Source of the DNA: a virus
Taxonomy: Duplodnaviria; Heunggongvirae; Uroviricota; Caudoviricetes
Reading direction: 5' to 3' (one strand)
Virus record (IMG/VR): IMGVR_UViG_2534681990_000031
Length of the DNA stretch: 39,588 nt
This document shows positions 1 through 35,927 of the stretch, one piece after another. The position numbers and the translations under genes were made by a program. Every line of letters begins with the position of its first letter. The first letter of the stretch is position 1. The notes under the pieces are model-generated. The model made no database searches, had not been told where the DNA came from, and worked only from the letters and a program-made list of their open reading frames with translations.

Positions 1-1554
1 TTATTTCAGATTCTTTCTAATTATTTTCCCCGAGCAATTACGTGGCAGATCTTTTCTGATCTCCAGATAAGAGGGCACTTTAAATTTCGCCATATTTTGT
101 TCGCAGAAGCGGAAAAATTCCTCTTCGCTCAATGTTTCACCTTCATTCAGCACCACAAATGCTTTGATGGCTTCATCGCGAATCGAATCTTTAATACCCA
201 CAACCACGATATCCTGAATTTTTGGATGGGTGGCGATGATATTTTCCAGCTCCACGCAGGAGACATTCTCGCCACCGCGTTTGATCATATTGCAGCGGCG
301 ATCGACGAAATAAAAAAAGCCCTCTTCGTCGCAGTATCCGGTATCGCCGGTATGTAGCCAGCCGTCGGCTTCCAGCACTTTCGCAGTGGCTTTCGGGTTG
401 AGAAAATACTCTTTGAAGATGGTTTTCCCTGGTACGCCTTTAATACAGATTTCACCGATCTCACCTGCCGGGAGCGGGCGATTGTGATCGTCGCGGATCT
501 CCGCTTCGTAGCAAAACCCCGCCCGACCAATCGACGGCCAGCGTCGTTTATCGCCAGGGCGATCGCCGATAATGCCCACAATGGTTTCCGTCATCCCATA
601 AGACGTCAGCAAGCGAACGCCGAAGCGTTCACAAAACGCATCTTTTTCCTGCTCCGACAAGTTGAGATAAAACATCACTTCCCGCAGGCGGTGTTGCCGA
701 TCGTTCGCTGAAGGCGGCTGCACCATCAACGTACGGATCATCATCGGAATACATTCGGTAATGGTGGCGCGGTACTTCTGCACCTGTCCCCAGAAGGCGC
801 GGGCGCTGTATTTCTCGACCAGCACAAAGGTGGCCCCGGCAGAAAACGCCGCCATCGCCGCAGTACACTGGCAATCGATATGAAACGCAGGCATTACCGT
901 CAGGTAGACGTCATCGTCACGCAGTGCACACTGCCAGGCGGAGTAATATCCAGCGAAGCGCAGGTTGTAATGGGTAATCACCACACCTTTCGGTCGGGAG
1001 GTGGTGCCGGAGGTGAAGAGAATTTCCGCCGTATCGTCAGTCAATAGCGGCGGTGCATAGCACAAGGTGGCAGGTTGTTGATTTTTCAGTTGAGTAAACG
1101 AACTCACGCCATCATCAGCGGGAAGTGCCACATCTGTCAGGCAAATGTGCCGCAATTGAGTGGCATCTTCCTGCTGAATCTGTTGATACATAGGATAGAA
1201 TTGCGCACTGGTCACCAGCAGGCACGCCTGGCTATTTTGCAGGATCCACGCGCTTTCCTCGCGTAACAGGCGGGCGTTAATCGGCACCATAATCGCGCCA
1301 ATTTTTGCCAGCCCGAACCAGCAAAAGATAAATTCCGGGCAGTTGTCGAGATGTAGTGCAACCTTGTCGCCTTTGCGAATCCCCAGCGTATAAAACAGGT
1401 TTGCCGTGCGGTTAATCTCCTGATTTAACTCAAGATAACTATACCGGTTAACGACTCCGCCGCTGGATTCACAAATCAGCGCCGTTTTATGACCGTAAAC
1501 GTCCGCCAGATCGTCCCACATTTGACGTAGATGTTGTCCGCCAATGATATCCAT
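1..1554 (-). CDS. caiC: crotonobetaine/carnitine-CoA ligase CaiC (host gene)
   Basis: Track ORF 1..1725(-); protein from [29 protein letters not shown] matches recalled E. coli CaiC; adenylate-forming motifs [10 protein letters not shown] and YGMTE; stop codon at window bases 1-3; in-frame ATG at 1569 (MDRGAM) is an alternative start. Confidence 0.9.
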
Positions 1555-1599
1555 TGCACCTCTATCCATTTTTGTTCGTTTGTTATTGGTATAGCGCGG

Positions 1600-1680
1600 C
1601 GATTTTTTTGATACCGATTTGCATTTCATTTGATACCGCTGAAAAACGCCGATACGCAACTTATTTGATACTAAATCGGC
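1600..1680. repeat. three direct TTTGATAC(C/T) repeats at phage right end, candidate transposase binding sites
   Basis: TTTGATACC near 1607 and 1629, TTTGATACT near 1664 (22 and 35 bp spacing); adjacent GAAAAACGC resembles the recalled Mu attR site core. Confidence 0.4.
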
Positions 1681-1717
1681 GCTTTTCTTTTGAGTTTTAG
1701 AATGAGTTTTTAAGCGC

Positions 1718-2455
1718 TCATTCACTCTCTTTCAAACCAGTTTTAACTGTTTGTGGTTTTGGGTAAGGCTGGACTTTGAATAGCTTTGTGTTGAGGCGTT
1801 TTCTGGCCCTCTTGTTCAGAAACCGGATGTAACGAAACTGTCGGAACTTATGCACACTGGCTCTGTCGATATTAGCCCTCAGATGTTCACCTCGTTGTCC
1901 GCCTCGTTTAATGGCATTCCTGCAAATCTCGTGATACCACTCGCCATCAAGTTCATAGAATGTTGATTCATGGCTGCCTACATAATCAAAATTGCTTGCC
2001 TGATACACGACACCAAGACAGCCACAACGCTCATCTGCAAACGACTGAACCCACTGTACCTGCGGATAAAGCTGCCTGATTAGCTTGAGCGCGTAACTGA
2101 TTGCCCTTGATTCGGAGTTTCTCGGCATACAGTCATGCATCCATAGCCGGTTAAGCTCCATATATTCTCGGTTCTGCGTACCCGTTACGACGCGTGCACC
2201 ACTGTTTGGGTTAAGGGCGTAACCCCATTGCATTACGCCAACAAGTTCCCGTTCTGAAAATATACCCAGATGAAGGTAGGAATTATTTACGAAACGGTGG
2301 CTGTAATGTTTATTGACGATAACCAGTCTGGCCAGCCAGCAACTTATTGTCTCAACCCGCAACTCACGGGAGCCATAACCAACGATATTGTCGTTATAGC
2401 GAATAAGTTCAGGCGTGCTGATGATACGGGATGTGACTTGCTTTCTGTTCCCCAC
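1718..2455 (-). CDS. mom: Mom-like DNA modification protein (anti-restriction adenine modification)
   Basis: Track ORF 245 aa; last gene before the phage right end; overlaps the 3' end of a Com-like zinc-finger ORF as in Mu; listed first codon is GTG so true start uncertain. Confidence 0.7.
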
Positions 2456-2609
2456 GACAGGATTTCCTTGTGTATGTGGGGTGCTCTGTGGCGCTCGGAG
2501 ATGTGATTTGATTGAGGGTTTTACTGCGCGGACATTTTACTTCCAGATAACTGAAACTGGCCCGTGCCAGTAGCTTATTGCAGTGTCGGCACCGTATGTT
2601 TCGATACAT
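2409..2609 (-). CDS. com: Com-like zinc-finger translational activator of mom
   Basis: Internal Met of track ORF 2409..2654 gives [30 protein letters not shown], resembling recalled Mu Com (IRCKNCNKLL...RCPRCK); overlaps mom start by ~47 bp. Confidence 0.65.
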
Positions 2610-2649
2610 GACCGCATAACCTCCTGCTTTGTTGTTGATGCCTTTCTCA

Positions 2650-2680
2650 TGCAATCGATCGACAAAAACGATCGATTCGA
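2650..2680 (-). promoter_or_regulatory. GATC/TCGATCGA cluster upstream of com-mom, candidate Dam-sensitive regulatory region
   Basis: Two GATC sites ~13 bp apart (about 2657 and 2670) within palindromic TCGATCGA/CGATCGAT about 50 bp upstream of com start; Mu mom promoter is regulated through clustered GATC sites. Confidence 0.4.
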
Positions 2681-2723
2681 TTTGTTTAATTGATACAACA
2701 AATAGATTGAAAAGTCATCAACA

Positions 2724-3188
2724 ATGATTCAGGGAGGTGATTATTTACTTAAAGAAAACGAAGAGTTAGGTGGTGAAAACGATCATAAAATGATCATTTT
2801 ATTGACTTTTTATACAGTGAAGGTAGGATCACGCGTACATGTAGTATGTTTCAAATCAACAGGATACTACATAAAAGTGAAACCCAGCATAGCTGGAACT
2901 ATGCTGGGTCAATCTGTAAAAACTTGCATCAATGCTTTACTTCGAGCTCGTGGCGTATCCTATGATATTCCCCGGTCTCCTGTAAAGCAGAGATGCATAA
3001 AAAGGAGATCTTTATCATGGATGAAAGAGCCTGTTTGCCCTGCCTGTAAGACTCCCTTACAGCTCATCTATCGCCGTTCTCGATCTCAAAATGGCAAGAC
3101 ATACAAACCCAAAAATGCTTCCTGTTTCAGGATGCTGATATGTCCTGCCTGTTCTCCCAGGAGGGAAAATACACAAAACGTGCATTAA
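2724..3188 (+). CDS. hypothetical Cys-rich protein; likely real product is the C-terminal ~55 aa (CPAC...CPAC) from an internal Met near 3021
   Basis: Track ORF 154 aa; C-terminal MKEPVCPACKTPLQ...CFRMLICPACS with AAGGAG-like RBS upstream of the internal ATG; convergent with minus-strand genes across a shared hairpin; N-terminal two thirds look non-protein-like. Confidence 0.25.
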   Translation: MIQGGDYLLKENEELGGENDHKMIILLTFYTVKVGSRVHVVCFKSTGYYIKVKPSIAGTMLGQSVKTCINALLRARGVSYDIPRSPVKQRCIKRRSLSWMKEPVCPACKTPLQLIYRRSRSQNGKTYKPKNASCFRMLICPACSPRRENTQNVH

Positions 3189-3197
3189 CAAATTCAC

Positions 3198-3217
3198 CCG
3201 GCAGGGAAACCTGCCGG
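3198..3217. terminator. perfect 8-bp stem / GAAA loop hairpin between convergent ORFs, candidate bidirectional terminator
   Basis: CCGGCAGG-GAAA-CCTGCCGG; ~10 bp downstream of plus ORF stop (3188) and minus ORF stop (3227); T-rich flank on both sides is only moderate. Confidence 0.45.
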
Positions 3218-3226
3218 TCGGTATTG

Positions 3227-3472
3227 TTACATCATAGTACCGTCAGTTCCGGGCTGAACCGGCTCTGGTTGCTCTACGGGTTGAGGATCATTTTCCGTGC
3301 TGTTTTCAGCCGGAGAACGGCCAACCATTCGGGCCAGCACTTCATCAACATATGCGTCGATTTGTGCCTCAAAATCCTTGCGAACCTGCGCCTTCAGCAC
3401 GCGGTTCACTTCTTCAGAATAAAGTGCCTGTTTGACAAGCTCTTCAGTAACCGTGCCTTTAATCTCTGGCAT
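3227..3472 (-). CDS. hypothetical small charged protein (81 aa), cargo island
   Basis: Track ORF; AAAAGGAGAATATTC-ATG RBS; protein-like composition (MPEIKGTVTEELVKQALYSEEVNRVLKAQVRKDFEAQIDAYVDEVLARMV...). Confidence 0.5.
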   Translation of the reverse strand: MPEIKGTVTEELVKQALYSEEVNRVLKAQVRKDFEAQIDAYVDEVLARMVGRSPAENSTENDPQPVEQPEPVQPGTDGTMM

Positions 3473-3507
3473 GAATATTCTCCTTTTGCAGGTATATTGC
3501 CCCGTTA

Positions 3508-3690
3508 TCAGAGCGGGGTCGGGTCGTTTGGGGATGACGGTGCCTGTGCTGTTTTACTGAGTTTTTCAGCTGCCGCATCATCAATTTTACGGCGAATATA
3601 ATTTCTGATGACCTTATAACCACCGCTCACCAGATATAACGCACTGACCACAGCGCAGAAATAAAGCAGCATTGTATGAACGAATGTCAT
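3508..3690 (-). CDS. hypothetical small membrane protein (60 aa, one N-terminal TM helix then basic tail)
   Basis: Track ORF MTFVHTMLLYFCAVVSALYLVSGGYKVIRNYIRRKIDD...; AAGG RBS; immediately upstream of the 81-aa ORF. Confidence 0.45.
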   Translation of the reverse strand: MTFVHTMLLYFCAVVSALYLVSGGYKVIRNYIRRKIDDAAAEKLSKTAQAPSSPNDPTPL

Positions 3691-3803
3691 ATAACCTTAC
3701 CTTTGATATTGACTACATAATTCGTTATCGGGTAAAAACATCGAAGCGACTGATAACCACTCCTTCGGGAGTATTTTTATTTTCCTTTATGGGTTAGGTA
3801 GCT

Positions 3804-3838
3804 CCCGCCAGCCATATCATGACCGGCGGGATTTTTTT
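3804..3838 (+). terminator. GC stem (CCCGCC...GGCGGG) followed by T7 run, plus-strand terminator-like element overlapping esterase stop codon
   Basis: 6-bp stem with 15-nt loop then ATTTTTTTAT; T run is on the plus strand only; the loop is long for an intrinsic terminator. Confidence 0.3.
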
Positions 3839-5876
3839 ATTCTGTTACCGCTTTTTTCACTTCCACCACAATGCTGTCAATCAGCACCGGGTAAGTTGCA
3901 TTTTTTGTGATATCCGTTACGCGGAGTTTGTCCACCGGGAAAGTTCCTACTGGTGACTGCGTCAGGGTAAACGCGGCACCATCCTGACCATCAATAACCG
4001 GAATAACCTGAAGGCTGTTATTTCCTGCAAAACGGAAGGCCAGCGTATGCCATTCATTATCAAATGCACCAAAGGTTCCCAGTTTCTGGTTATTTGTTGC
4101 CACTTTTGCATTGTGGTACATCACATTCAGGTCTTTTGCGTCTGTCTGGATGTAGAACGATGCCAGCAGATTATTCCCTGCATCCCCTGTCAGGGTGACA
4201 CCCTGCGGCAGAGAGGAAACCGGCCAGTAAAGCCCCATGACATACTGGTTTGCCACCAGGTCGCCAGGTACTTTAAAACGACAACTGATTAAACCACCAT
4301 TTTTCAGCAGTTCAGCACCAGTACCGGCATCATGATCCAGATACCAAGATGATTTACCTGTTTCCTTGGTCAGTTTCATTGCCTTACCACCTGTGCCTCC
4401 TGCATCACTGATAATTTCAGCTTTACCGCCAGCCGGCTCCCAGCCCTGGGCTTTCAGATTTCCTTCTGACTCACTGACACGATAAGACAGCAGTGTTGTG
4501 GTTACTGCTTCAGTTTCTGAAGGTGACGGCACTGGTGCTTCAGTTTCAGAAGATGGAACATCGGCTTTTACTGTGGTTCGCCCCGCATGAGTCAGAACTG
4601 CCGTGGCCAGACGGTCGGAAATAATCCCACGACGTGCCCATGAACTGAAATGGCTGGCCCGGTCCGCAGATGTCCAGGTGGCGGCACTGTTACGCCACGT
4701 TGAGCCGTAATAACCAATGGATTCAATATCCGGGTCTTCTGCCGGATTGTTGGTGGGTACATTCGCGTCATTTTCATCTGTCATTAATGGAACGAAATGA
4801 ATGTTTTTATCTGTTTTGTTTTTGTAGCCGCCATAGATTGCCTGGTATGCCGGTTCATTTTTCTGTTTCCAGAAATACGTGGTATCGCCACAAATCCACG
4901 GAACGCCAGCAGCACTGCCACCGGTACACTGTTCCGCCTGTTCAGCCAGGTCTGCGCGGAATTTTTCCACCATCGCCAGAAACAGCGCGGAATGCTCCGT
5001 CGGCTTCGCATCAATATCAAACTCGCCCTGCATCCACACCACAGCAAGCAGGCGGTTTTTCGGGTTCTTCGCCAGTGCCGCTTTTGTCCGGCTGATTAAG
5101 TCCTTATACAGCGGCTTATCCACACCCCAGCGGGCTGAGTCCTCTGAAGCACCCGTGCTGTCACTGTACGTGCCGTCAGCACCCGCCGTGAATGCAGAAC
5201 CACCACGGCAGCAGGGAACCAGCAGAATCCCCGCATCTGCCGGAATAAACGGCAGCAGTTTTTTGGCAATGTGAAGCCCCTGACCCACGGTGCCATATTG
5301 CCCTTTAGCCACATCCGCTTTCGGGTGATTTTTTCCACTCATATCCTGCACATCATGCAGACAGTGGTCGGCCAGAATGATGTCGTTATACTGACAGGCT
5401 TTACCTCCCGGCGTGACTGTACTGCGACGGGCTAACTGCATAATACGCGGTTCGGGGCGGTCATATGTCTCCGGCAGTGGCAGACCTTCACCGTAAGCCA
5501 TACCGTTTGACTGACCAGCAAGAACCACCACGTAATACCAGGAAGGGGAGCTGGAAGCAGTTTCATTTCCTGACGGACGGGTATGTGTTTCAGCATTATC
5601 CCAGTCTGACGGTTCAGCAGTACCGGCAACATCAGCACTTAACGGAATGACCGCACCAATACCCGCTCCGGTAATTTCCACACTCGGATCACCGGATACT
5701 GGCCTTACCCACAGGCAATCCCGTGTATTAAAACTGATGAGACAGTCAGCAAATGTCATTCCTCCTTTTGTTTCGGCCGGAGGAAAGGGAGCCTCAAGAA
5801 ATGCCGCTGTACCACCGGAAACTTTAACAGTAAAGTTTCCGGGCATTGATGATAGTTGAACCCATTTGGACGTCAT
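3837..5876 (-). CDS. putative sialate O-acetylesterase-type SGNH/SASA hydrolase with C-terminal beta-rich (lectin-like) domain; NanS-p-like prophage cargo
   Basis: Track ORF 679 aa; VVVLAGQSNGMAYGEG (GQSN block I) and LLAVVWMQGEFD motifs typical of the SASA esterase family; S/T/P-rich linker PSSETEAPVPSPSETEA; sits between gin and com where Mu has no gene. Confidence 0.6.
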   Translation of the reverse strand: MTSKWVQLSSMPGNFTVKVSGGTAAFLEAPFPPAETKGGMTFADCLISFNTRDCLWVRPVSGDPSVEITGAGIGAVIPLSADVAGTAEPSDWDNAETHTRPSGNETASSSPSWYYVVVLAGQSNGMAYGEGLPLPETYDRPEPRIMQLARRSTVTPGGKACQYNDIILADHCLHDVQDMSGKNHPKADVAKGQYGTVGQGLHIAKKLLPFIPADAGILLVPCCRGGSAFTAGADGTYSDSTGASEDSARWGVDKPLYKDLISRTKAALAKNPKNRLLAVVWMQGEFDIDAKPTEHSALFLAMVEKFRADLAEQAEQCTGGSAAGVPWICGDTTYFWKQKNEPAYQAIYGGYKNKTDKNIHFVPLMTDENDANVPTNNPAEDPDIESIGYYGSTWRNSAATWTSADRASHFSSWARRGIISDRLATAVLTHAGRTTVKADVPSSETEAPVPSPSETEAVTTTLLSYRVSESEGNLKAQGWEPAGGKAEIISDAGGTGGKAMKLTKETGKSSWYLDHDAGTGAELLKNGGLISCRFKVPGDLVANQYVMGLYWPVSSLPQGVTLTGDAGNNLLASFYIQTDAKDLNVMYHNAKVATNNQKLGTFGAFDNEWHTLAFRFAGNNSLQVIPVIDGQDGAAFTLTQSPVGTFPVDKLRVTDITKNATYPVLIDSIVVEVKKAVTE

Positions 5877-5975
5877 AATAATCAGCCTGTTCCTGAATAA
5901 ACTGAATTATCATATCCACAGACCGATAAACGCCATTTTGCGTTAATTCAGTAAAGGCCCAACAAAGGGAGCGTC

Positions 5976-6536
5976 TTATTTTTCCGAAACGCTCGCAGGA
6001 TAATAACGATAAAGGGTTGAAAGGCCGATATCAAAAATAAGTGCCACCTGTCTTCGACTGACACCCCCGGCCAGTAAACGCCCGACCTGCTCGTATTGTT
6101 CCTGCGTGAGACGACGGGGTCTGCCGCCGGTTCGTCCCCTTTCACGGGCAGCTGCAAGACCAGCCCGTGTCCGTTCGACAATTAATTCACGCTCCATTTC
6201 TGCCAGCGCACCCATTATGTGAAAAAAGAAGCGCCCCATGGGGGTTGACGTATCAATGTTGTCAGTAAGACTACGAAAATTTATCCCCTGTTGCTGTAAT
6301 TCATCTGTCAGCGCAACAAGGTGGCGCATACTGCGCCCCAGCCTGTCCAGTTTCCAGACCATCAGTGTGTCACCGGGTTTTAGTTTCTTCAGTGCCCGCT
6401 TCAGTCCCGGCCGCTGTGTCGTTTTACCACTCATTTTATCTTCAAAAATCTGCTCACATCCTGCACATTCCAGCGCATTTCTTTGTAAACCTGTGTTCTG
6501 GTCATTTGTTGATACGCGTATATAGCCAATCAGCAT
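5976..6536 (-). CDS. gin: Gin/Hin/Pin-family serine DNA invertase
   Basis: MLIGYIRVSTNDQNTGLQRNALECAGCEQIFEDK... closely resembles recalled Mu Gin including catalytic-Ser motif RVSTNDQ and C-terminal HTH. Confidence 0.9.
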   Translation of the reverse strand: MLIGYIRVSTNDQNTGLQRNALECAGCEQIFEDKMSGKTTQRPGLKRALKKLKPGDTLMVWKLDRLGRSMRHLVALTDELQQQGINFRSLTDNIDTSTPMGRFFFHIMGALAEMERELIVERTRAGLAAARERGRTGGRPRRLTQEQYEQVGRLLAGGVSRRQVALIFDIGLSTLYRYYPASVSEK

Positions 6537-6591
6537 GTATTTACCTTCCTTAAAAAGAGGTGGAAAGGCCTTTTAAAGCAGATATACGGCA

Positions 6592-6617
6592 TCCCTGAAA
6601 CCTCGGTTTACGGGATA
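6592..6617. other. gix-like recombination site (left crossover)
   Basis: AAACCTCGGTTTACGGGA resembles the recalled Mu gix core AAACCTCGGTTTACAGGAA; lies ~60 bp upstream of gin start; inverted-repeat homology with the tail-fibre gene begins here. Confidence 0.5.
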
Positions 6618-6961
6618 CTGTAAACAGGGCCGCGAATGCCCTGCCATCGAACGGAGCGGCTGTTGCAGCGAATAAACTCGCCACTCCAAGAAATATTAAT
6701 GGTGTCCCATTTGACGGAACGCAGGATATAAATATTACATCGGGGATGACGCAGTCTGTGGCTGACTCACGTTATGTTCAAAGCATTCGAAGAGGTTCAA
6801 GGTCAACGATTGGAATGCAATATAATATTTTTGAGGTTCCTGACGGATGCGTACTTACAGGGCTTGATGTCGCTGGTGATGGTAATGCAACGGTAACCGC
6901 ATATTATCGACCTGTTCAGTTTCTGATAGATGGTTCGTGGAAAACAGCTTCCAGCGCATAA
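6599..6961 (+). CDS. silent alternative tail-fibre C-terminal cassette (S'v-like), promoter-less and start-less in this orientation
   Basis: Open frame begins right after a TGA at the gix site; shares ~60 aa with the expressed fibre then a distinct 60-aa tip ...GCVLTGLDVAGDGNATVTAYYRPVQFLIDGSWKTASSA. Confidence 0.6.
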   Translation, partial: NLGLRDTVNRAANALPSNGAAVAANKLATPRNINGVPFDGTQDINITSGMTQSVADSRYVQSIRRGSRSTIGMQYNIFEVPDGCVLTGLDVAGDGNATVTAYYRPVQFLIDGSWKTASSA

Positions 6962-35451: not shown

Positions 35452-35724
35452 TTACCCCTGCTGATTAAATTCATTACCTTTAATAACCCCGGAACGCATG
35501 CTCATATCTTTCATGAGCGCACTGGCTTTCATTGCCACAAGTTCAGCAAAGTCTCTGCTTTCCGCGAGCATAACCACCCCAAAAATCATGGCGGGTCCAT
35601 CACCTTTCTGCTTTATCCCGGTTGAACGTATGTCCAGACTTACCCCCATGCGCACTGTTCCATCAGCGTTTTTATGGATAACGTGCTCCTTGTATTCGAA
35701 AATAATGCGTACGACTTTACTCAT
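35452..35724 (-). CDS. hypothetical protein, paralog 1 of tandem pair (90 aa)
   Basis: Track ORF; ATGA overlap with upstream ORF. Confidence 0.5.
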   Translation of the reverse strand: MSKVVRIIFEYKEHVIHKNADGTVRMGVSLDIRSTGIKQKGDGPAMIFGVVMLAESRDFAELVAMKASALMKDMSMRSGVIKGNEFNQQG

Positions 35725-35927
35725 CCTCTGGTCCTCGTTCTGTTTGGATAACTGACCCGGCGTCTGACCTCACGGCAGAACCGAATCATGGCATTAAAGG
35801 CTTCTTCCTCCGTCACCGCTTCCGGTATCCCCGGAACCAGTAACTGCTCCTGTTCATCACGTCCATGACGCGCCATAACCTCAATCACATGCCGTACCGT
35901 GGCAGGCTTTCCGGCAACTATCGGCAA
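35721..35927 (-). CDS. hypothetical small protein (<=68 aa)
   Basis: Track ORF with TTG first codon; internal GTG/ATG starts possible; weakly supported. Confidence 0.35.
   Translation of the reverse strand: MPIVAGKPATVRHVIEVMARHGRDEQEQLLVPGIPEAVTEEEAFNAMIRFCREVRRRVSYPNRTRTRG

Follow-up and report, generated by a model that had tools for sequence, protein, structure and literature searches.

The 3,366 bp that separate gin from com in a Mu-like prophage (positions 2610–5975 of IMG/VR virus record IMGVR_UViG_2534681990_000031, a stretch of 39,588 nucleotides referred to here as the window) are best interpreted as the version, in Mu-like phages, of the NanS-p module. As read here, the module would comprise a sialate O-acetylesterase, a membrane partner of the DUF1378 family and a DUF826 protein; a probability of about 0.72 is assigned to this interpretation, which is based on sequence comparisons. 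The comparisons also suggest that the module has long been established across the whole clade of Sp18-like Mu phages, in which the esterase's N-terminal domain has remained constant along with the phage backbone while the esterase core and DUF1378 have repeatedly been exchanged. An earlier description of the same DNA, made without database searches (the sequence-only reading), took the block for inserted cargo and did not recognise it as the nanS-p block known from Shiga toxin (Stx) phages.

A NanS-p-type esterase between gin and com

In phage Mu (NC_000929), 94 bp lie between the end of gin at 35673 and the start of com at 35768, and alignment of Mu DNA to the window gave matches for gin and mom with nothing between them. 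It is apparent that the block is extra relative to Mu, as the sequence-only reading had proposed. That reading had also named a 679-aa SGNH/SASA esterase as the main gene, and this is borne out by the Pfam and structural matches. Residues 104–428 match NanS/YjhS (PDB 3pt5) in a residue-level alignment (E 1.9e-118), and residues 459–674 match the C-terminal domain of NanS-p (PDB 6yp6; E 1e-111). The SGNH blocks GQSN, CCRGGSAF, WMQGE and RASH (RASH/RSSH as defined in PMC10462455) are intact, and are kept in all of the alleles aligned. No signal-peptide-like hydrophobic stretch was found at the N-terminus of the esterase. Taken together, the two structural matches, the Pfam matches and the intact SGNH blocks identify the 679-aa protein as an esterase of the NanS-p type, leaderless and composed of three domains. 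Prediction of the full-length esterase with AlphaFold2 (AF2), run without an alignment, gave a predicted local distance difference test (pLDDT) value of 34. The coordinates of the esterase and of the other features of the region are collected in Table 1.

The prophage and the gene are already present in the public annotation, the latter as 'DUF6645 domain-containing protein', and the enzyme family is a known one. A full-text literature search found no paper naming both nanS-p and Mu-like phages. As a separate observation, the length of the second interdomain linker (approximately 4500–4560) varies. The 679-aa form in the window reads SETEAPVPSPSETEA at this point, where a common 669-aa variant (P0046, found in more than 1000 contigs) reads SETEA and is without the 10 direct-repeat residues.

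The esterase gene is followed by genes for a DUF1378 protein, a membrane peptide (mean hydropathy 1.97 over 18 aa), and for a DUF826 protein. A prophage location with DUF1378 and DUF826 downstream is shared with the NanS-p family; in Stx2 phage 1717, stx is followed by nanS-p, DUF1378, DUF826 and holin, with DUF826 in the same position as in the window. The position in a Q-dependent late region downstream of stx is not found here, the host element being a Mu-like transposable prophage. The esterase DNA at window 5538–3856 is 77% identical to that of phage 1717, and the two small proteins are 53 and 47% identical to their 1717 counterparts. A DNA search of phages with the DUF1378–DUF826 region returned Mu-like copies only, the relation to lambdoid phages being apparent at the protein level only. 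Of the records in the phage database, 309 contained DUF1378 and 348 contained the esterase, and the two adjoined one another where this was checked. Scans of the island proteins against NCBIfam and PADLOC produced no match and no sign of a known defence system.

Table 1. Features of the gin–com block and of the genes that flank it, in window coordinates
Feature	Position	Strand	Remarks
gin-type DNA invertase	5976-6536	-	Pfam Resolvase 1.4e-51, and HTH_7; upstream neighbour, not cargo
gin–esterase spacer, 99 bp	5877-5975	-	No terminator; weak promoter-like site only
Esterase, 679 aa	3837-5876	-	Pfam SASA (PF03629) 6.5e-12; DUF6645 (PF20350) 2.4e-69
Esterase residues 1-103	5568-5876	-	Apparently new all-beta domain (residues ~1-80), then Ser/Thr/Pro-rich linker ending SSSPS
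Esterase residues 104-430	4587-5567	-	NanS-type SGNH/SASA catalytic domain; PDB 3pt5
Esterase residues 459-679 and stop	3837-4502	-	Lectin-like jelly-roll C-terminal domain (DUF6645); PDB 6yp6
GC-rich hairpin, 13 bp	3803-3831	.	Directly after esterase stop; A7 before it on gene strand
DUF1378, 60 aa	3508-3690	-	Pfam 1.2e-38; N-terminal hydrophobic helix, basic tail
DUF826, 81 aa	3227-3472	-	Pfam 2.8e-15; acidic, Pro/Glu-rich tail
GC hairpin, 8 bp	3198-3217	.	Between converging DUF826 and zinc-ribbon genes
Zinc-ribbon ORF, 55 aa	3021-3188	+	MKEPVCPAC...CPAC; within variable slot 2999-3226
Annotated ORF, 154 aa	2724-3188	+	Fusion by 1-nt indel
Strong intrinsic terminator	2881-2910	-	13-bp stem and UUUCACUUUUAU; strand of esterase and mom; inside annotated 154-aa ORF
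AT-rich stretch	2705-2998	.	DNA kept in most lineages, not as one reading frame
com-upstream region	2610-2704	-	Palindrome AATCGATCG-N7-CGATCGATT at 2653-2677; two GATC, one per arm
com	2409-2609	-	Pfam Zn_ribbon_Com 1.3e-10; downstream neighbour
mom	1718-2455	-	Pfam Mom 5.8e-77; downstream neighbour

Distribution and domain-level mosaicism of the module

The lineages inspected were those of the window type, L016 and L019 (with the viral contigs L016–L019), FORC_069, M3 and 90-3040, together with one Salmonella prophage. It is apparent that the esterase–DUF1378–DUF826 trio is situated upstream of com in every one of the E. coli lineages. Among the complete E. coli genomes with this com–mom region, 198 of 232 match through DUF826, and each of the divergent genomes that was opened also had the trio. 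At least the esterase is present in the Salmonella Mu-like prophage, after gin. With regard to the traits of a moron, terminators are located at 3198–3217 and 2881–2910, only weak promoter-like sites were found, and the distribution of the module is not sporadic, since it occurs in all of the Sp18-like lineages inspected. The description of the block as an accessory module is retained, but 'inserted cargo island' is misleading for a trio found in every E. coli lineage inspected. The sequence-only reading had named conservation of the gene set as core genes in all Mu-family genomes as the outcome that would refute its view. This outcome is not observed, because Mu itself is without the block; the set is nonetheless conserved throughout this clade.

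Flanking genes differ in two of the lineages. In M3 (a mouse strain; L028, 10445–10750), gin has been lost except for approximately 60 bp of its 3′ end, so that the tail-fibre segment is presumably no longer invertible, and the esterase directly follows the tail-fibre genes. In 90-3040 (L029, 4665–5871), as well as in LC727881, L009 and L014, a DNA cytosine methyltransferase is found in place of mom. In the 90-3040 lineage the methyltransferase is still located after com, the C-terminus of which is altered; with the methyltransferase in the place of mom, the anti-restriction gene has been exchanged at this locus.

The FORC_069 esterase is 66% identical to that of the window. DNA identity between these two lineages is 85% in the baseplate region, 70% over gin and the esterase, 78% over DUF1378 and DUF826, and reaches 96.5% between 2994 and the end of the phage. 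When the esterases of the window, L016 and L019 were compared domain by domain, identities of 98–99% were obtained for the N-domain, 67–69% for the catalytic domain and 35–47% for the C-terminal domain. The corresponding values for the window versus FORC_069 are 60, 70 and 72%. For the window versus lambdoid phage 1717, the catalytic and C-terminal domains are 82 and 78% identical, and the N-termini have no real homology, their identity of approximately 22–27% representing alignment noise. The core of the window esterase is nearer to that of lambdoid phage 1717 than to that of the FORC_069 Mu lineage.

In L016 and L019, DUF1378 is 57–59% identical to that of the window and DUF826 is 95–99% identical. 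Since DUF1378 is divergent while DUF826 is nearly constant, the swapped unit consists of the esterase core together with DUF1378. The possibility that the allele swap in L016 represents a recent copy of a resident lambdoid allele was ruled out, because the L016 core gave no megablast match and has at most 62% protein identity to any phage record. The combination of clade-wide conservation with mosaicism at the level of domains appears to be undescribed.

The core of the window esterase is 94–95% identical to that of DUF1737-type proteins. Among these is P0082 (94%), which belongs to a P2-like prophage and is encoded on draft contig L031, a close match to the prophage described next. In the P2-like prophage of JNEC-KY174 (L032, 6102–8306), a DUF1737-type esterase (WP_075826087.1) and DUF1378 are located between lysC and the tail genes. 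DUF1378 adjoins the esterase in lambdoid, P2-like and Mu-like prophages, and this pairing across three backbones is a pointer to function for DUF1378, a family for which there has been none so far. The joint movement of the two genes across three phage types also appears to be undescribed. In a hybrid, P0073 (L030; GCA_012426925.1, contig AASMET010000054.1, 1–4800), lambdoid upstream DNA and DUF1737 are joined to a Mu-type part comprising the esterase core, DUF1378, DUF826, com and mom. The junction, at window position ~5522, falls where the N-domain gives way to the catalytic domain; observed in a single draft contig, it may have arisen by recombination between prophages via the shared esterase gene, or may be an assembly chimera.

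The N-terminal domain and possible roles of the esterase

The DUF1737 domain of other NanS-p proteins is replaced in the window esterase by approximately 100 unrelated N-terminal residues. DUF1737 (PF08410) gave no match in the window protein, and is absent from the precomputed Pfam list of its protein cluster; it is present in the lambdoid and P2-like relatives. A HMMER search of 1.84 billion representative proteins with the N-domain returned five matches. Of the four sequences read, three are esterase N-termini. The fourth, P0005, is a 1445-aa repeat protein and not an esterase (E 3.3e-08; matching residues 53–103 of the window esterase, in 9 stretches), and its match may reflect similarity to the low-complexity linker. 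The esterase directly follows a gin-type invertase in P0004 and P0006, and follows two small genes after the invertase in P0008. In the contexts of P0009 and P0010, an invertase lies just upstream in three of the four contigs, and the upstream gene in the other (L022) has no Pfam match.

The N-domain has relatives in E. coli, Shigella sonnei and Salmonella enterica. The Salmonella N-domain is 29% identical, and its contig is Mu-like (baseplate, tail-fibre and invertase genes), with the order gin, two small genes, esterase. Judging by these matches, the N-domain is specific to Mu-like phages and usually located right after gin, P0005 being the sole match that is not an esterase. No match was obtained in genome contigs with the E. 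coli and Salmonella N-domains, or in viral contigs with the Salmonella N-domain, and no paralogue of the N-domain was found within the phage. AF2, supplied with the five-sequence alignment, produced an all-beta model with pLDDT values of 84–91 over residues 11–70, followed by a disordered linker after residue ~80. When this model was used in fold searches, only generic cupin-like matches were obtained from the PDB, and BFVD yielded none of significance. The domain appears to be previously undescribed.

According to passages in PMC8065619 and PMC10462455, NanS-p of lambdoid Stx phages releases acetate from N-acetyl-9-O-acetylneuraminic acid (Neu5,9Ac2) and mucin glycans; passages in the former also describe nanS-p expression as late and increasing upon phage induction. 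We infer as follows what the window enzyme acts on, when it is expressed and how it is released. Given that it has no signal peptide, the enzyme would most likely act outside the cell after lysis of the host by the phage, possibly tethered to the particle. By homology with the lambdoid proteins, for which this activity has been demonstrated in experiments, it would de-O-acetylate sialic acids in the mucus of the gut, both Neu5,9Ac2 and the O-acetylated glycans of mucin, with the lectin-like domain directing it to its substrate. Recombination may vary the specificity, as the catalytic and lectin domains and DUF1378 are exchanged with the alleles of other prophages. The module would be parted from the tightly controlled com–mom operon by the terminators at 3198–3217 and 2881–2910 and by a small variable slot. 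The two terminators plausibly stop transcription of the module from running on into the mom operon; in Mu, unregulated expression of mom is harmful to the host.

Several observations weigh against this interpretation. The region upstream of the esterase yielded no sigma-70 promoter of acceptable quality. The hairpin at 3803–3831 has no U-tail on the coding strand, which makes the limits of the transcription unit uncertain. The P2-like copy in JNEC-KY174 is without DUF826, and no function is known for DUF1378 or DUF826, so that the three genes are proposed as a functional unit on the basis of synteny. Finally, with lectin domains only 35–47% identical between sister phages, specificity may differ among them, and O-acetylated O-antigen or capsule would be possible targets.

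It is conceivable, though we consider it the less probable case, that the virion carries the esterase, with the Mu-specific N-domain serving to anchor it to a Mu-type head or tail. Particles of this kind would bind O-acetylated sialoglycans in mucus, or trim them; this would be compatible with the NanS-p interpretation. The NanS-p homologue of phi24B, gp84, decorates the capsid via binding of DUF1737 to hexons and is then processed, as has been proposed, at SSP-containing linkers (bioRxiv 10.64898/2026.04.10.717836). The layout of the window protein is alike, with a small N-domain, a linker ending SSSPS and the catalytic domain. Its first linker ends in ASSSPS right before the catalytic domain, and its second has PSPS and no SSP, which is itself a short, low-complexity motif. 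The restriction of the N-domain to Mu-like phages, its constancy while the remainder of the protein was swapped and the lack of a signal peptide are likewise consistent with anchoring. So is the location of the gene, which closes the tail-fibre region and is on the late-gene strand (in M3, directly after the tail-fibre genes). Phage tail fibres and tailspikes usually combine a constant N-terminal attachment part with a distal part that varies. A simpler explanation for the unchanging N-domain, however, is that lambdoid alleles have no homology there, so that recombination cannot replace it, and anchoring also has to contend with the lack of an N-domain paralogue in the phage. In addition, DUF1737 is retained by the P2-like copy, the capsid of which is of another type, and this makes a separate adaptor for each backbone less convincing. 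A more elaborate proposal, somewhat more doubtful again, is that the N-domain would be a new virion adaptor specific to Mu-type particles, so that Sp18-like phages of Shiga-toxin E. coli would display an exchangeable sialoglycan esterase and lectin at the particle surface. The partner dedicated to handling this leaderless enzyme would be DUF1378, because it moves together with the esterase among lambdoid, P2-like and Mu-like backbones.

Classical lysogenic conversion seems unlikely; the sequence-only reading had considered the block the clearest candidate for a lysogenic-conversion or accessory module. The esterase would under conversion be made in the resting lysogen, through read-through from the constitutively expressed gin or from a weak promoter of its own, and the host would feed on O-acetylated sialic acids. 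The two genes are on the same strand with no terminator in the 99 bp between them, and gin is expressed in Mu lysogens. The spacer contains a promoter-like site with a -10 element TATGAT and a poor -35, and shares short motifs (TGAATT..CGCAAAA and GAACAGG) with the FORC_069 lineage. The hosts are gut E. coli that produce Shiga toxin (STEC), from cattle and humans, and lambdoid copies of nanS-p support growth on Neu5,9Ac2, according to passages in PMC8065619. Linkage to gin transcription is not conserved, given the two genes that intervene between gin and the esterase in the Salmonella relative and the absence of gin in M3. A leaderless cytoplasmic enzyme would also need its substrate inside the cell, whereas the NanS of the host is periplasmic. 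The lack of a convincing promoter and the published, induction-linked expression of nanS-p likewise speak against conversion.

Less probable still is modification of the phage receptor, whereby removal of O-acetyl groups from O-antigen or capsule would aid adsorption or block superinfection, and swaps of the lectin domain would track serotypes. This role has been raised for NanS-p in a review (PMC8065619), and it is in keeping with a lectin-like domain that diverges among near-identical phages in the manner of host-range determinants, as well as with a gene that adjoins the invertible tail-fibre segment. The catalytic domain, though, is very close to the sialate esterase NanS, and passages in the same review have the lambdoid homologues acting on mucin and sialic acids. 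Alleles showed no association with the serotype of the host, though no test aimed at this was made. The notion that the block is foreign DNA which recently entered a single Mu-like prophage by accident, and does nothing for the phage, can be dismissed despite the absence of the block from Mu and its slightly lower G+C content (0.48, versus 0.55 for the backbone): the block occupies the same site in every lineage inspected, with esterases only ~60–70% identical in some, and occurs in Salmonella as well, all of its genes are intact, and its N-domain is specific to Mu-like phages.

The com-proximal region, the host prophage and known systems

The sequence-only reading had noted two hairpin terminators; strong hairpins are indeed present, although there are three of them rather than two. 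The hairpin directly after the esterase stop (-23.2 kcal/mol, z = -5.4) and its A-run are kept in the window, FORC_069 and phage 1717, with stems that differ in sequence. As the A7 precedes this hairpin on the gene strand, the canonical terminator (hairpin and T7) would be on the opposite strand. The hairpin at 3198–3217, at -17 to -18 kcal/mol whichever strand is taken (z about -3), probably terminates transcription in both directions. The terminator at 2881–2910 (-25.8 kcal/mol in an 85-nt context, z = -3.8) is kept in all relatives.

The small genes had also been described as visibly AT-rich, which was not confirmed: the G+C contents of DUF826, DUF1378 and the esterase are 0.50, 0.46 and 0.51, respectively, compared with the backbone value given above. 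The truly AT-rich portion is 2610–2998, with a G+C content of 0.38.

As for the Cys-rich plus-strand ORF, its final 55 aa represent a conserved gene, but its length of 154 aa is the product of a 1-nt indel. One extra base in the window (ATGGATGAAAGAG, versus ATGGATAAAGAG in relatives) joins a 56-aa zinc-ribbon ORF to upstream sequence, and a new in-frame ATG leaves the zinc ribbon of the window whole as MKEPVCPAC. Through indels, the plus-strand ORF is 56, 82, 99, 106, 115 or 154 aa in length among the relatives. Because the upstream frame is variable and holds the minus-strand terminator, only 3021–3188 was taken as a gene. The zinc ribbon is intact (MDKEPVCPAC or MKEPVCPAC) in the window, LC727881, L009, L015 and L016; in L017–19 and FORC_069, other small ORFs occupy the slot. 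No family was found for the zinc-ribbon ORF in Pfam, NCBIfam or PADLOC, and in the phage database it was found in Mu-like copies only.

The DNA identity of 2705–2998 across lineages is 96.5–99%. Within this stretch, on the minus strand at 2875–2990, a promoter-like sequence (TTTACA-18-TAGGAT, 2986–2957) is followed ~50 nt later by the terminator at 2881–2910 with its U-tail. The region is kept in all relatives, including those in which the adjoining slot is different, and may encode a small RNA. A search of Rfam with 1500–6800 gave chance matches only, and none for 2875–2990. The ~95 bp at 2610–2704 are kept in every lineage, even in those that diverge past 2704, and the equivalent 94-bp spacer of Mu also has GATC sites. 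In view of this conservation, and of a size and position like those of the gin–com spacer of Mu, the segment is presumed to be the control region of the mom operon, and not cargo.

The prophage extends from approximately 1587 (5′-TG) through the remainder of the window, following caiC (1–1555). Its insertion point lies between caiB and caiC, immediately upstream of the latter, and the insertion has probably cut caiC–E off from the cai promoter. Annotation of the whole element was taken from RefSeq for E. coli UTAK-8, which is 100% identical over window 1500–6700. It includes a Mu-type transposase, MuB, Gam, a Mor-family activator, lysis genes, a Mu-type head, a contractile tail, an invertible tail-fibre segment, gin, com and mom. 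The features of a Mu-like prophage of the Sp18 group are accordingly present: transposase and MuB, a Mor/C-type activator, head and tail genes, a G segment with gin, com–mom and varied insertion sites. Prophage Sp18 of Sakai O157:H7 is 99.4% identical to window 1590–3480 (mom through DUF826), and has been predicted to be intact and found to be packaged spontaneously (PMC2669165). This right end and block are found again in 167 complete E. coli genomes at differing chromosomal sites, as is expected of a transposing phage. The gin DNA is 71.5% identical to that of Mu.

Two further observations concern this element and its relatives. In the Com protein of the window, Cys29, the fourth zinc-binding cysteine, is replaced by Ser (TGT to AGT, codon ~2523–2525, giving KCPRSK); the cysteine is kept in Mu and in every other relative examined. 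The Ser29 allele (WP_001444515.1) is present in further genomes, for example OkiPb01679. Com is required for translation of mom in Mu, and mom may therefore be silent in the sublineage of the window. In LC727881.1 and LC727895.1 (L002), deposited as 'Stx-converting phage' records, a copy of the Mu-like phage sits inside an Stx prophage, and its insertion is annotated with a 4-bp repeat_region as the duplication due to insertion.

NanS-p is discussed as a fitness- and virulence-associated factor of Shiga-toxin E. coli and is treated as a feature of lambdoid Stx phages. A Mu-like prophage present in about 4% of complete E. coli genomes, Sakai (Sp18) among them, adds an intact copy of the nanS-p type. 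Domain searches that require DUF1737 would miss this copy, and it should be counted in knockout studies of sialic-acid use in strains with Sp18. The esterase gene also supplies common sequence to prophages that are unrelated but share a genome, and could thereby permit rearrangements between such prophages. The occurrence of one core, 94–95% identical, on different N-domains according to phage type, together with the capsid binding of DUF1737, gives rise to the testable idea that the enzyme is mounted on different particles.

Comparison with known systems places the module as follows. The Mu right end has the same order and orientation of gin, com and mom, GATC sites upstream of com and the phage end just past mom, and differs in its short gin–com interval (94 bp, versus 3.4 kb here) and in the layout upstream of com. 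NanS/YjhS of E. coli K-12 shares the catalytic domain and SGNH blocks. It is a chromosomal, exported, single-domain enzyme, whereas the window protein has additional N- and C-terminal domains and no signal peptide. The P2-like DUF1737-type esterase of JNEC-KY174 is likewise followed by DUF1378, and the P0082 member of its group is close to the window protein over the core; it differs in keeping DUF1737, in lying between lysis and tail genes and in having no DUF826. Lambdoid NanS-p, as in phage 1717, shares the SASA/SGNH catalytic and lectin-like C-terminal domains at the identities given above, as well as the adjacent DUF1378 and DUF826, the hairpin right after the stop codon, the lack of a signal peptide and STEC hosts. 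It has, however, the capsid-binding DUF1737 at its N-terminus, where the window protein has an unrelated beta domain of ~80 aa, and its gene lies between Q/stx and holin, in contrast to the location between gin and com–mom of a transposable Mu-like myovirus described here.

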